64,000 nucleotides of DNA from an uncultured Alphaproteobacteria bacterium (GTDB taxonomy: Bacteria > Pseudomonadota > Alphaproteobacteria > Rs-D84): the NCBI GenBank assembly GCA_944389525.1, contig CALXMR010000001.1, forward strand, positions 228,658-292,657. Reading direction: 5' to 3'. The notes below the pieces were generated by a model. It ran no database searches. It saw only the letters and a program-made list of their open reading frames with translations, and was not told the DNA's origin. Every line of letters begins with the position of its first letter. Positions within the stretch are counted from its first letter, which is position 1. Made by a program: the position numbers and the translations under genes. Below, in pieces: positions 9,556-19,156 of this stretch.

Positions 9556-11793
9556 ATGAAAAGCCGTAATTTCGCAGATTTTTTTAAAAACGCAATGGGA
9601 ACGGTATTTTTATTGGCGGGTGCGTTCTTTGTATGTTCAACATTGGTTTCTATTCGTGCGGTGTTTGCTGATCCGATTGCCCCAGTGGCCACATCTGCAA
9701 TGGTGACCGGCCCCCAGGCAACGCGTGCTGGCACCGCGTCACCGCGTAATTCCACAACTACATCGCGTCGCACGGCGGCGAACACGGTGTCGCGTGGCAC
9801 GGCGGCCACGGCGACTGTTGCACCGGTATCGTCGCGTACGGTTTCTTCACGTGGCACGGTATCGCGCGCAACCGTGTCCCAGAATGCATCTCGTGCTACA
9901 AATTTATCACGCGCAACGGCGACCACTGCATCACGCGCAACGGCGACATCTGCACGCCCCAGCGTATCTGCATCGCGCGCAACGGCGGGGGTGTCGACGC
10001 GTCCATCTGCGGCGACGACCAGTGGTCGTAACGTTGTATCCCGTGGCACGGTTGCAAACGCATCGCGCGCAACAACAAATCGTAATATAATATCGCGCAG
10101 TGGCACCAATGCCCGTGTTTCTCTGCAGGGTAGCGCAATCCGTGGCAGCAAGGCGGCAACAAATTCTACCACATATACATATCTGCAAAACAGATTGTAC
10201 ACGGGCAATTATTCAAATATTATTGACTCGACAACTGGGTTGATTTCTGCGGATGCGTACAATAATTGTATGGAATCATACTATGCGTGTATGGATGAAA
10301 TCTGTACCGCGCGTAACGCGGCCCAGCGCCGTTGTGCATGCGCCGGTCGTGTCAAGGCATTTGCAGAGGCCGAAGCCGCACTGGAACAGGCAAACGAAGA
10401 ATTGATAAAGGTATCCGGTGAATTGGCGTTACTGATTGCGACCAAGGGTAAAGATGTCAGCCAGGCATTCCAATTAACCGATGCAGAAAAGGTTATGAAC
10501 TGTGTTTCATGGAAAGAAGTAACGGACCAATATGGCGCCAGTTCCGAAGAAGCGGTAGATTGGTGTTATAACCACGGTCTGTTCGATGGTTCTGGCAACG
10601 GCCAAAGCCCCTGTAACCAGCCGTCATATTGTTCCGAGACGGGGAATAACTTTGGTTTTGATATTGCCAACATCGATGGCACCAGCAGTGATATTTTGGC
10701 GTCTTTGCAATCATGGGCCGATGCCAAGGAAAGCACACTGACGATATTGACCGATGATACAAACAGTTTGACATCTGCATTTGAAAATCTGACAAATGTC
10801 GTGGGGGATTTGTCGGGTGTTGGCGGTGCATTGGCAGACAGCGAAAACCTGAAAGATTCATTGGCGGAAACATGGGGCTATGAATTGTTTGAATACGCGC
10901 ATAACAATGTTTGCAACCGCGTGCTGGATTCCTGTTTTAACGGTATTTACGAGGCGTGTGGTACACCGCCATCCGGCGGACGCAAGTGCGGCAATGGCCA
11001 ATCGCAATGCCCGTTTAATTATAACAGTTACATCAGTGTGTCAAACACCGGTACATATGAATTGGACTTTATTGAACCGAACACGGGGTATACGGCGTCT
11101 AATTCGGCAACATGCTTTGGTTATACATCGGCATCAGGCGACCCATATTCCGATCTGCGTGGGCCGGTGGCCGATGCCCGGCGCAGTATTATGCAGAAAT
11201 ATGCGCTGGATGCGAATGCAGACTGTGATGCGTATGGTGAACAGTTAAGCACGACTGCACAGAATATCGGTTATCAAAAGGTCGCCGCGCAACAGGCATT
11301 GCAACAAAAGCGTATGGAATTCTATCAAGAAGAACAAGAAACTATGTTGGCGGATGCCACGGCGGCTGGTTCGAACTTTAACGAATGCCTCAGCGAGGTT
11401 TTGGATTGCTATGAAACCCAGGCTGATGCCGAGCCAAACTGGACAACGGCGCGTATAAAAACATACTGTGCCCAGGTTGCAAATGTACCGCATTGCTATG
11501 AAACGATGATTTGCAATCCATCAACATCACAGTTCCGCGCAGTTATTGATAAGCAAGACAGCCAGACATGTAACAACAGCCAGGATCCGGAAAAAAATAC
11601 ATGTCGCAATATCGTGACACTGAACGAAATATTGAATGGTGTTAACGGCGCAACCGTGACAGACACCGAAACCCAGTTGTGCATCGACACGGATGTAGAC
11701 AATTGTAATTCGGCTGATTTGCGTGAACAATGTTTGTTGAACAATTGGGTAACGGAAATCCGTGAATGGGAAAAACCAGCATCTGGTGATTAA
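9556..11793 (+). CDS. Large secreted cysteine-rich protein, paralog 1
   Basis: 745 aa. Signal peptide/TM (VFLLAGAFFVCSTLVSIRAVFA), about 180 aa of degenerate (S/T)RAT repeats, then 40+ Cys including CMESYYACMDEICTARNAAQRRCACAG, which is shared with the gene at 12424. The promoter is ttacag...tgttataat. Confidence 0.8.
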   Translation: MKSRNFADFFKNAMGTVFLLAGAFFVCSTLVSIRAVFADPIAPVATSAMVTGPQATRAGTASPRNSTTTSRRTAANTVSRGTAATATVAPVSSRTVSSRGTVSRATVSQNASRATNLSRATATTASRATATSARPSVSASRATAGVSTRPSAATTSGRNVVSRGTVANASRATTNRNIISRSGTNARVSLQGSAIRGSKAATNSTTYTYLQNRLYTGNYSNIIDSTTGLISADAYNNCMESYYACMDEICTARNAAQRRCACAGRVKAFAEAEAALEQANEELIKVSGELALLIATKGKDVSQAFQLTDAEKVMNCVSWKEVTDQYGASSEEAVDWCYNHGLFDGSGNGQSPCNQPSYCSETGNNFGFDIANIDGTSSDILASLQSWADAKESTLTILTDDTNSLTSAFENLTNVVGDLSGVGGALADSENLKDSLAETWGYELFEYAHNNVCNRVLDSCFNGIYEACGTPPSGGRKCGNGQSQCPFNYNSYISVSNTGTYELDFIEPNTGYTASNSATCFGYTSASGDPYSDLRGPVADARRSIMQKYALDANADCDAYGEQLSTTAQNIGYQKVAAQQALQQKRMEFYQEEQETMLADATAAGSNFNECLSEVLDCYETQADAEPNWTTARIKTYCAQVANVPHCYETMICNPSTSQFRAVIDKQDSQTCNNSQDPEKNTCRNIVTLNEILNGVNGATVTDTETQLCIDTDVDNCNSADLREQCLLNNWVTEIREWEKPASGD

Positions 11794-11822
11794 AAAAACG
11801 GGGCACAGCCCCGTTTTTTTAT
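11794..11822 (+). terminator. Rho-independent terminator
   Basis: aaaaaaacggggcacagccccgttttttt. Confidence 0.7.
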
Positions 11823-18350: not shown

Positions 18351-19156
18351 TGAAAAGAAATGAACTTATTTTAAACATATTCAAATTTGTGCGCCGCGCG
18401 CTGATTGGGGCGATGTTTGTATTGTGCGTGCCGGCGGTGGCAGCGGTATCGAACAACGGGTGCGATGATGCTGATAATATGTATATAAATCCAGAATTGG
18501 CACTGTGCACCACGCACGCGTATAACGCGGGTTGGCTGGAAAATCCGGAAAATTCTGGGGACAGACAAATGATGAACGATATCATTGCGTTGAAAAGCAC
18601 AGTTATGATGCAGCAGATGTACAAACAGTACGAGTTTTTAGAAGCCACATTAAATCGTATGAAAACGCAACTGCGACGCGAAATATTAACCACCCGGCTA
18701 GAGGCCGCCGGCGCAACCACCAGCGGTGGCGCATCTGGTTCATCATCTGTATCATCTGGATCTGTTGGTGGCAACAACGGTGTTTCCGGGGCAGAAAATT
18801 GTATTGCGGCGGGTTTGTCGGATGATGTTATGGAATGTCTGTTGCGCAATGTTAACAGAATTCAAACGGCAATAAATAATTCCGATATTGGTGCCGCCAA
18901 ACGTCAGATTGATACAGATTTAGATGTATTGGAAATGTACGACAAGCTTGAAAAAAACGCGCCAGATCCGCGCGACAAAGACGGCAACACAAAAATATCC
19001 CCTGCGCTGGCGAATGCATATTCCAAGTGTAACAGTGCACGCAACAACCGTACAGAAATGACAGAGTGTGTTAATTATATTCGCGCATGCATAACCCAGA
19101 ATATAGAATACTTGCAAAATCAAAATCGTGGCGGGTATAATCAGTTTATGCGCTAG
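18350..19156 (+). CDS. Secreted protein, coupled to paralog 3 (hypothetical)
   Basis: 268 aa, start at MKRNELILNIFKFVRRALIGAMFVLCVPAVAAV (signal peptide), a Gly/Ser-rich linker, eight Cys. Confidence 0.65.
   Translation: MKRNELILNIFKFVRRALIGAMFVLCVPAVAAVSNNGCDDADNMYINPELALCTTHAYNAGWLENPENSGDRQMMNDIIALKSTVMMQQMYKQYEFLEATLNRMKTQLRREILTTRLEAAGATTSGGASGSSSVSSGSVGGNNGVSGAENCIAAGLSDDVMECLLRNVNRIQTAINNSDIGAAKRQIDTDLDVLEMYDKLEKNAPDPRDKDGNTKISPALANAYSKCNSARNNRTEMTECVNYIRACITQNIEYLQNQNRGGYNQFMR

Follow-up and report, generated by a model that had tools for sequence, protein, structure and literature searches.

Disulfide-rich exported proteins with envelope or adhesion roles have precedents in host-dependent bacteria. 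The chlamydial proteins OmcB and OmcA carry a signal peptide and about 4-5% cysteine in a host-dependent bacterium with a reduced genome, and OmcB, in which a basic N-terminal segment precedes the cysteine-rich body, has roles in both structural cross-linking and adhesion. Here, we examine four genes, A to D, for cysteine-rich proteins predicted to be exported, which lie in a 64,000-nucleotide stretch of DNA (the window; assembly GCA_944389525.1, contig CALXMR010000001.1, positions 228,658 to 292,657) from the gut alphaproteobacterium Candidatus Enterousia, order Rs-D84. These proteins resemble OmcB and OmcA in their signal peptides, in the high cysteine content of A to C and in the reduced genome that encodes them, and in A and B a basic N terminus is followed by a cysteine-rich body. 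They differ in predicted secondary structure and in cysteine spacing, with pairs of cysteines separated by six residues (CX6C) in helices, and Enterousia, moreover, keeps its genes for peptidoglycan synthesis.

Other systems offer partial parallels. Two kinds of disulfide-stapled helical hairpin proteins, the mitochondrial CHCH proteins (twin CX9C/CX3C) and the cysteine-rich Sel1-repeat proteins (Hcp) of Helicobacter, place regular cysteine pairs on one face of a helix outside the cytoplasm, and here CX6C pairs fall in predicted helices; however, the spacing in those proteins is 9, 3 or 7 rather than 6, and A to C are far larger. None of the Sel1, CHCH or chlamydial outer-membrane protein models of Pfam matched A to D at E <= 1. 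With EGF domains, Giardia VSP-like proteins and Listeria-Bacteroides surface proteins the likeness lies in the modules of the B family, which carry an EGF-type signature, and in long relatives of B that have tens of such modules, Flg_new repeats or both, although Pfam EGF-type models stay below threshold, Foldseek matches have E > 3 and B itself lacks Flg_new. TraN of the F plasmid, located in the outer membrane, has a variable tip and 22 conserved cysteines, each of which is predicted to take part in a disulfide bond (PMC9246713). The likeness is to an exported envelope protein of about 600 residues with more than 20 conserved cysteines and a conserved body, whose variable tip binds an outer-membrane protein of the partner cell (PMC9246713). 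TraN is mostly beta, whereas A, B and C are predicted to be largely helical; A to D are chromosomal core genes with no F-type tra genes nearby, and no sequence, profile or fold similarity to it was found.

Four conserved genes of Candidatus Enterousia

Enterousia is placed in the order Rs-D84, whose members have genomes of <1 Mb and are without respiration, most biosynthesis and standard transporters (PMC12306168). A symbiotic or parasitic lifestyle, with dependence on other cells, has been proposed for this order (PMC12306168), and Enterousia is presumed to be partner dependent. The four genes are as follows.

9556 to 11793, forward strand: gene A, 745 amino acids, 27 cysteines (26 without the signal peptide), a predicted exported cysteine-rich protein and paralogue of B (open reading frame and orthologues)
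12424 to 15084, forward strand: gene B, 886 amino acids, 44 cysteines, a predicted exported cysteine-rich protein (open reading frame and homologues)
16350 to 18350, forward strand: gene C, 666 amino acids from the ATG chosen by gene callers on identical contigs, 28 cysteines, a separate family (homologues)
18350 to 19156, forward strand: gene D, 268 amino acids, 8 cysteines (7 without the signal peptide), predicted to be exported

A first-pass annotation of this DNA had delineated the same four open reading frames around the ribosomal genes rplU and rpmA, each with a signal peptide. Our analysis agrees on the reading frames (an alternative GTG start at 16314 would lengthen C to 678 residues) and on their position, with the genes flanking rplU-rpmA. 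The estimate of 40-60 cysteines per protein was wrong, the mature proteins having 26, 44, 28 and 7; the numbers for A, B and C are even. Cysteine makes up 3.6-5.0% of A to C, whereas for housekeeping genes in the window the share is roughly 0.3-1.7%.

Signal peptides were assessed from hydropathy, and cleavage sites by inspection, which is weaker than a test with a formal predictor. By these means the only transmembrane-like segment of each protein is a hydrophobic one at the N terminus, and each fits the n-h-c architecture with small residues at positions -3 and -1 (AXA-type sites AVFA/DP in A, SAFA/DG in B, GASA/SP in C and AVAA/VS in D). All four are thus predicted to be exported by Sec as substrates of signal peptidase I. 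Within the signal peptide of A, Cys27 stands in a non-canonical FFVC context and is conserved in all orthologues aligned (n = 33); attachment of A as a lipoprotein through this residue is a candidate reading. Anchoring to peptidoglycan by an N-terminal Ala-Asp motif, as in outer-membrane proteins of Brucella, was considered, but an AXA cut after Ala would leave Asp as the first residue. The TAA stop codon of C and the ATG start codon of D share one base (TAATG, 18348-18352), which makes translational coupling plausible for this pair, described as coupled in the first-pass annotation.

Relatives of these proteins are numerous. When one genome per species was scanned, relatives of B were found in 302 species genomes. 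The best 80 all come from metagenome-assembled genomes labelled Candidatus Enterousia, 'uncultured Alphaproteobacteria' or 'Rickettsiales', obtained from human, chicken and ruminant guts, one of them a circular genome of 958 kb; more distant members, with 28-30% identity, are annotated 'hypothetical protein' in 'Rickettsiales bacterium' assemblies. In all, the homologues of B number more than 1000, none with a name or a Pfam domain; at 50% identity B-type proteins fall into 719 clusters (234 with E <= 1e-30), while the C family comprises more than 1200 clusters at 90% identity. Orthologues of A, with 55-83% identity, are found at the corresponding place in about 45 related loci, and in about 40 the gene order is PPDK, a PagL-like outer-membrane protein gene (reverse strand), A, rplU, rpmA, B, dnaQ (reverse strand) and uvrD. 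The genes are therefore real and under purifying selection, as orthologues occur in dozens of species, synteny is kept and the families are large. A and B occur once per genome, as core genes whose synteny is fixed in dozens of Enterousia species, and are not the product of a lineage-specific family expansion, a possibility raised in the first-pass annotation. The C-D pair recurs in two further loci (L013 and L088). Taken together, A to D are best explained as conserved, lineage-specific extracytoplasmic proteins encoded by core genes of Candidatus Enterousia (Rs-D84). They were not found in the literature on Enterousia, Rs-D84 and CX6C.

In the two species with L013 and L088, a divergent BspA-type leucine-rich repeat (LRR_5) protein of 593-595 residues is encoded directly upstream of C-D (L013, 12392-14173; L088, 8094-9881; both on the reverse strand); no homologue of it occurs within the window.

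Relationships, domain layout and cysteine spacing

The first-pass annotation treated A, B and C as three paralogues of one family. For A and B this is right: BLASTP aligns them with E = 3e-14, and hhalign, applied to their family profiles (33 and 80 orthologues, respectively), aligns A 20-286 with B 4-282 at 98% probability (E 2e-13). The module C-x3-Y-x2-CMD-x2-C...RC-x-C, proposed earlier as a conserved element of the two proteins, falls within this aligned region and reads C238-MES-Y-YA-C245-MD-EI-C250...RR-C260-A-C262 in A and C234-QQQ-Y-ND-C241-MD-QF-C246...KR-C256-S-C258 in B. A second short segment is shared according to BLASTP (A 545-618, B 408-478). By these alignments, A and B are true paralogues. 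C gave no BLASTP match to either protein, and its profile matched theirs with a probability of 1-3% even when diverse alignments were included; hence, C as a third paralogue is rejected at the sensitivity reached. D matches none of A, B and C. On sequence comparison, therefore, the set consists of two paralogues and two separate families of similar composition. The parts of A and B are as follows.

9556 to 9669, forward strand: signal peptide of A (residues 1-38), predicted cut AVFA/DP by inspection
9670 to 10230, forward strand: basic Arg/Ser/Thr-rich low-complexity region of A (residues 39-225; composition)
10267 to 10341, forward strand: A copy of the shared cysteine module (residues 238-262), matching B 234-258 (BLASTP, hhalign), 92-97% conserved in orthologues
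12424 to 12483, forward strand: signal peptide of B (residues 1-20), predicted cut SAFA/DG (hydropathy and inspection)
12484 to 13068, forward strand: basic Ser/Thr/Arg-rich region of B (residues 21-215; composition), net charge +9, predicted as disordered in the AlphaFold2 (AF2) model, with a pLDDT (predicted local distance difference test) <50
13069 to 14583, forward strand: acidic, predicted helical core of B (residues 216-720), net charge -38, eight CX6C pairs, shared module at residues 234-258 (13123-13197)
14584 to 14763, forward strand: C-terminal CxC hairpin modules of B (residues 721-780), conserved, beta-hairpins in the AF2 model with pLDDT 70-83
14764 to 15081, forward strand: species-specific C-terminal extension of B (residues 781-886), three repeats of about 33 residues with the pattern C-x8-C-x5-C-x6-C

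A and B share a layout of four parts, in which a signal peptide, a basic region and an acidic core rich in CX6C pairs are followed by a variable C-terminal tail of cysteine repeats with CxC hairpin modules. Both paralogues are charge dipoles, with N-terminal regions of +21 (A) and +9 (B) followed by cores of -44 and -38. The basic region of A contains 22 Arg, 1 Lys, 2 Asp and no Glu, with 35% Ser plus Thr; its sequence varies among orthologues while its composition is maintained, and it aligns to the equivalent region of B. Embedded in the latter is a motif of about 55 residues, NTVGRNARV..INNNPAVRRAGLTLRPSTAEVGGRATIAGTDIQTGSNI (residues ~141-195, 12844-13023), that is nearly invariant (conservation 0.79-0.91 at residues 141-180). 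The cysteines of A are about 100% conserved in the 33 orthologues, as are the core cysteines of B in its own orthologues; the N-terminal low-complexity regions and the C-terminal ends of both proteins are variable. The AF2 model of B, with an overall pLDDT of 52.6, places long helices, at low confidence, at residues 217-253, 262-288, 405-473, 600-645, 652-675 and 689-705.

In C, all 28 cysteines lie in the mature protein, and many are invariant in 88 homologues. Its AF2 model (pLDDT 62.8) has a confident N-terminal helical cysteine domain (residues 61-130, pLDDT 71-95), a long Gln/Met/Ala-rich helix (107-197), a beta region (345-430) and C-terminal CxC hairpins; the middle part, comprising a helical and a beta region, is conserved. 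The Gln/Met/Ala-rich stretch …QMQQMQQQMAAMQQQMQQQSADTAAQIQ… (residues ~120-200, 16650-16950 in the window) is near-invariant in all members of the family, an uncommon trait for a low-complexity sequence, and gave only a spurious sub-threshold match to TFIIA in Pfam. The idea of disordered repeat N-termini thus holds for A and B only, whereas C has a conserved Gln/Met/Ala-rich helix in this place; CxC units at the C-terminal ends of both B and C were described correctly, as judged from the cysteine positions. In D, six cysteines are conserved in an alignment of three sequences.

The cysteines of A to C are regularly spaced. CX6C pairs number 4 in A, 8 in B and 4 in C, where random placement would give 0.75, 0.97 and 0.92, a 4- to 8-fold enrichment, and in the AF2 models of B and C they lie inside predicted helices. 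This is consistent with cysteines on one helix face that staple neighbouring helices. A symmetry criterion for twin-CX6C hairpins proved uninformative, because it is satisfied by any two pairs of equal spacing. Because the cysteines of mature A to C are even in number, near-invariant and enriched in CX6C pairs within predicted helices, we infer that these proteins fold as disulfide-stapled structures. High cysteine content alone could also reflect metal binding or redox chemistry, but this is extremely improbable here. The signal peptides are of Sec rather than Tat type, the cysteine numbers are even and gap counts show no recurring CXXC spacing, the sole C-x2-C (B 743/746) being species-specific; the lack of recurring CXXC and the Sec-type signal peptides argue against metal clusters, and CxC and EGF-like spacings are typical of disulfide knots.

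The first-pass annotation described the C-termini as resembling EGF-like or keratin-associated repeats. The keratin-associated likeness finds no support, and of the EGF likeness a short signature in B survives, without a match to the Pfam EGF models. One hairpin module of B, CKCNSGYSVYNGQC (residue 730), fits the pattern C-x-C-x2-[GP]-[FYW]-x4-8-C, which we take to be that of PROSITE EGF_2. It is the only match in B, and there is none in A, C or D; among 120 close homologues of B, however, 117 contain the signature, with 217 matches compared with 0.25 in shuffled sequences. Small beta-hairpins appear in the AF2 model of B with pLDDT 70-86. Pfam EGF models did not match B at E <= 1 or its tail alone at E <= 10. 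The tail of one relative gave sub-threshold matches to Pvs28 EGF (E 0.03) and TIL_2 (E 0.006), and the weak Foldseek matches were to a factor Xa EGF domain and an R-spondin furin repeat.

The C-terminal end of B proteins is also highly variable. Only 2-5% of the 80 orthologues have the extension at residues 781-886, and longer relatives, of up to 2338 residues, retain the core but carry additional tails of repeats, containing 70-120 cysteines. Listeria-Bacteroides (Flg_new) surface repeats scored above the Pfam threshold in 5 of 10 long relatives scanned. A conserved N-terminal and core region followed by a C terminus that is hypervariable in sequence and length recalls polymorphic toxins, and A to D might be secreted toxins or effectors in which a conserved delivery region carries a variable active domain. 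Such an arrangement appears highly improbable, as the variable tails consist of cysteine and surface repeats with no toxin or enzyme domain recognisable in Pfam scans, no immunity-like small gene follows A or B, and each genome has one copy in fixed synteny.

Searches for known families placed none of the four proteins. Nothing at or near threshold was found for A to D in Pfam, NCBIfam and PHROGs (for A, no family match in any of the three), the one PHROGs match being of 30 residues (E 0.004) to a family of unknown function. PDB and profile sequence searches gave no match, and Foldseek searches of PDB with the models of B and C reached best E values of 0.8 and 1.0, with no specific fold match. 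The first-pass annotation had named an autotransporter or a phage tail fibre as examples of a characterised family to which these proteins might prove homologous; no such homology was detected. Origin from a phage or plasmid is rejected, since PHROGs, 72,556 plasmids (tblastn with C) and 2.9 million viral contigs yielded no relative. The families of A to D are unannotated in all databases examined, and no homologue with a known function or fold could be detected.

One homologue of C bears the UniRef name 'IncF plasmid conjugative transfer protein TraN'. The name points to a role for A to D in contact or mating-pair stabilisation by a type IV secretion system (T4SS), with C acting as TraN of the F plasmid does on outer-membrane proteins of a partner. 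The conserved cysteines and variable tip of TraN would fit such a role, as would five polytopic membrane proteins encoded 3 kb away, one with a sub-threshold TrbL/VirB6 match (E 6e-4). We nevertheless consider it improbable. The Pfam TraN and NCBIfam TraN_Ftype models matched neither C, P0271 nor 47 members of the C family, even at E = 10; the C-family profile aligned with TraN of F at 0.3% probability (hhalign); and the difference in predicted fold, the PDB searches and the plasmid search speak against it. The neighbours of C are rpmA, dnaQ and uvrD here and the LRR protein and unannotated genes elsewhere, with no F-type tra operon and no adjacent tra or virB gene. The identification of C as TraN is rejected on all these counts. 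That an exported protein has 20 or more conserved cysteines, as C does with many of its 28 invariant, is not specific to TraN. TraN remains a useful functional analogy for C and not its identity.

Possible roles at the cell envelope

We favour, with a probability of about 0.4, the reading that A to D are surface stalk or attachment proteins, stapled by disulfides and ending in a variable binding tip. After export by Sec, for which the signal-peptide features seen on inspection speak, the proteins would fold outside the cytoplasm into disulfide-stapled structures. The basic, Arg/Ser/Thr-rich disordered N terminus of A and B may tether them to the negatively charged envelope or to a partner protein, the acidic helical core, as drawn in a low-confidence model, could form an elongated stalk, and the fast-evolving modular tail of cysteine repeats would be the exposed, target-binding end. 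Together with the coupled C-D pair, they might build a protease- and bile-resistant surface layer or an attachment structure that grips other cells or host mucus.

Several observations support surface exposure. A surface or adhesin-like role is plausible because Listeria-Bacteroides repeats and very large tails of cysteine repeats occur in long relatives of B. The C terminus is modular and variable, and an LRR surface protein lies beside C-D in two species. A lipoprotein-like open reading frame 13.5 kb from D (32693-32986, 97 residues, 5 cysteines) matches MliC, an inhibitor of c-type (animal) lysozyme, which suggests direct exposure to animal host defences, and both this gene and the dependence of Rs-D84 on other cells fit the surface reading. 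The adhesin or effector function proposed in the first-pass annotation is, nevertheless, something that we infer.

Other observations weigh against the surface reading. No beta-barrel, autotransporter or two-partner secretion domain and no sorting signal was found in Pfam searches and AF2 models, in which B and C have no barrel-sized beta region, and no route across the outer membrane was identified. The structural models are of low confidence and have no specific fold match. No Dsb-like gene occurs among the open reading frames scanned, which cover only 64 kb of the genome, and the organism is a gut anaerobe reported to be without respiratory chains, which bears on disulfide formation (PMC12306168). 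In addition, a structural function in the envelope explains at least as well as a classical adhesin role why these are core genes that keep a fixed place next to housekeeping genes.

Such a structural role is the main rival. In this view, A to D would form a disulfide-cross-linked scaffold, located in the periplasm or associated with the outer membrane, and, like chlamydial OmcB and OmcA, would lend rigidity to the envelope of a cell with a reduced genome. Although we regard this as rather unlikely, it accounts well for single-copy core genes in fixed synteny, for invariant cysteines and for the lack of a detected signal for outer-membrane export or anchoring; the long helical hairpins resemble, in a generic way only, those of periplasm-spanning adaptors, and the basic N terminus with a cysteine-rich body is reminiscent of OmcB. 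Highly variable modular tails with Listeria-Bacteroides surface repeats would, however, be unexpected in an internal scaffold, and the lack of Pfam matches to chlamydial families does not favour it. Rs-D84 also keeps MreB, RodA and penicillin-binding protein genes, and peptidoglycan is therefore present.

A bolder version of the surface reading, which we hold to be doubtful, is that A/B and C/D make up an undescribed envelope apparatus specific to Rs-D84, in which large CX6C-stapled helical proteins with a disordered Arg-rich anchor and an exchangeable cysteine-knot tip would enable these obligately partner-dependent bacteria to attach to and exploit other cells. An apparatus of this kind would need a means of oxidative folding, although the organism is an anaerobe without respiratory quinone chains.

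Surroundings of the genes and significance for Enterousia

The window departs from the usual gene order at one point: B lies upstream of rplU rather than in its usual place downstream of rpmA, and C-D fill the slot that B has in other species. The features concerned, with others between the genes, are as follows.

9441 to 9469, forward strand: promoter-like site, TTTACA-17-TATAAT with TG, 87 nucleotides upstream of A, 11 of 12 consensus matches (pattern match only)
11873 to 12172, forward strand: direct repeat copy 1, comprising the promoter region of rplU and its initial ~65 codons, 300 nucleotides, 99% identical to copy 2
15120 to 15419, forward strand: direct repeat copy 2, within the intact operon of rplU (15226-15525) and rpmA (15553-15819)
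8562 to 8588 (after PPDK), 11791 to 11819 (after A) and 15818 to 15844 (after rpmA), no strand assigned: palindrome AAAAAACGGGGCGACGCCCCGTTTTTT with an A6-GC stem-T6 structure (blastn self-matches)
15932 to 15962 and 16073 to 16103: 31-nucleotide hairpin-containing repeat, present twice between rpmA and C

Repeat copy 1 gives rise to a truncated reading frame, rplU' (11979-12419), which ends 4 nucleotides before the start codon of B. The 250 nucleotides between this repeat copy and B resemble the hairpin 3' of rpmA and the region directly upstream of B in other species, which suggests that the rplU-rpmA-B unit was duplicated and then suffered deletions. Mis-assembly as the source of rplU' is rejected, because independent contigs from other samples (L083 and L084) span rplU'-B-rplU. 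The palindrome looks like a bidirectional terminator or an element of the repetitive extragenic palindromic (REP) type; a terminator scan detected its rpmA copy.

Other features of the window may be mentioned. The PagL-like outer-membrane protein (197 residues, 8826-9419, reverse strand; lipid A deacylase domain, E 2e-14) divergently adjoins A in nearly all related loci. An open reading frame at 4362-4859 encodes 165 residues with a signal peptide, 7 cysteines and no Pfam match, and may belong to the same repertoire of exported, cysteine-rich proteins. The five polytopic proteins (22103-28747; four on the reverse strand and one on the forward strand) are weakly paralogous, with 424-479 residues and 6-8 transmembrane-like segments each, and their arrangement recalls the VirB6 paralogues that Rickettsiales carry in tandem, although they have no further T4SS gene next to them. 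The 23S rRNA gene (194-2477), followed by a 5S rRNA gene (2572-2686), is just 2284 nucleotides long, and covariance-model positions ~15-565 (domain I, 551 nucleotides) are represented by 29 nucleotides. Domain I may lie farther upstream, beyond the start of the window and behind an intervening sequence, as in a fragmented 23S rRNA, or may be missing.

Enterousia and other Rs-D84 are widespread in human, poultry and ruminant guts and have never been cultured. About 8 kb of the genome (~1%) is devoted to four conserved cysteine-rich proteins, predicted to be exported and annotated nowhere, which makes A to D prime candidates for the machinery that serves cell contact or the envelope in this lineage. 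Three features in particular merit follow-up: the CX6C-rich helical core, the disordered, Arg-rich segment and the invariant motif within it, and core status in an anaerobe without respiratory chains. The last of these raises the biochemical question of how such an organism oxidises 26-44 cysteines per protein. If A to D are indeed exposed at the surface, they would be useful as markers or antigens to detect or enrich Enterousia and Rs-D84, and they bear on the question of how these bacteria contact and exploit a partner.

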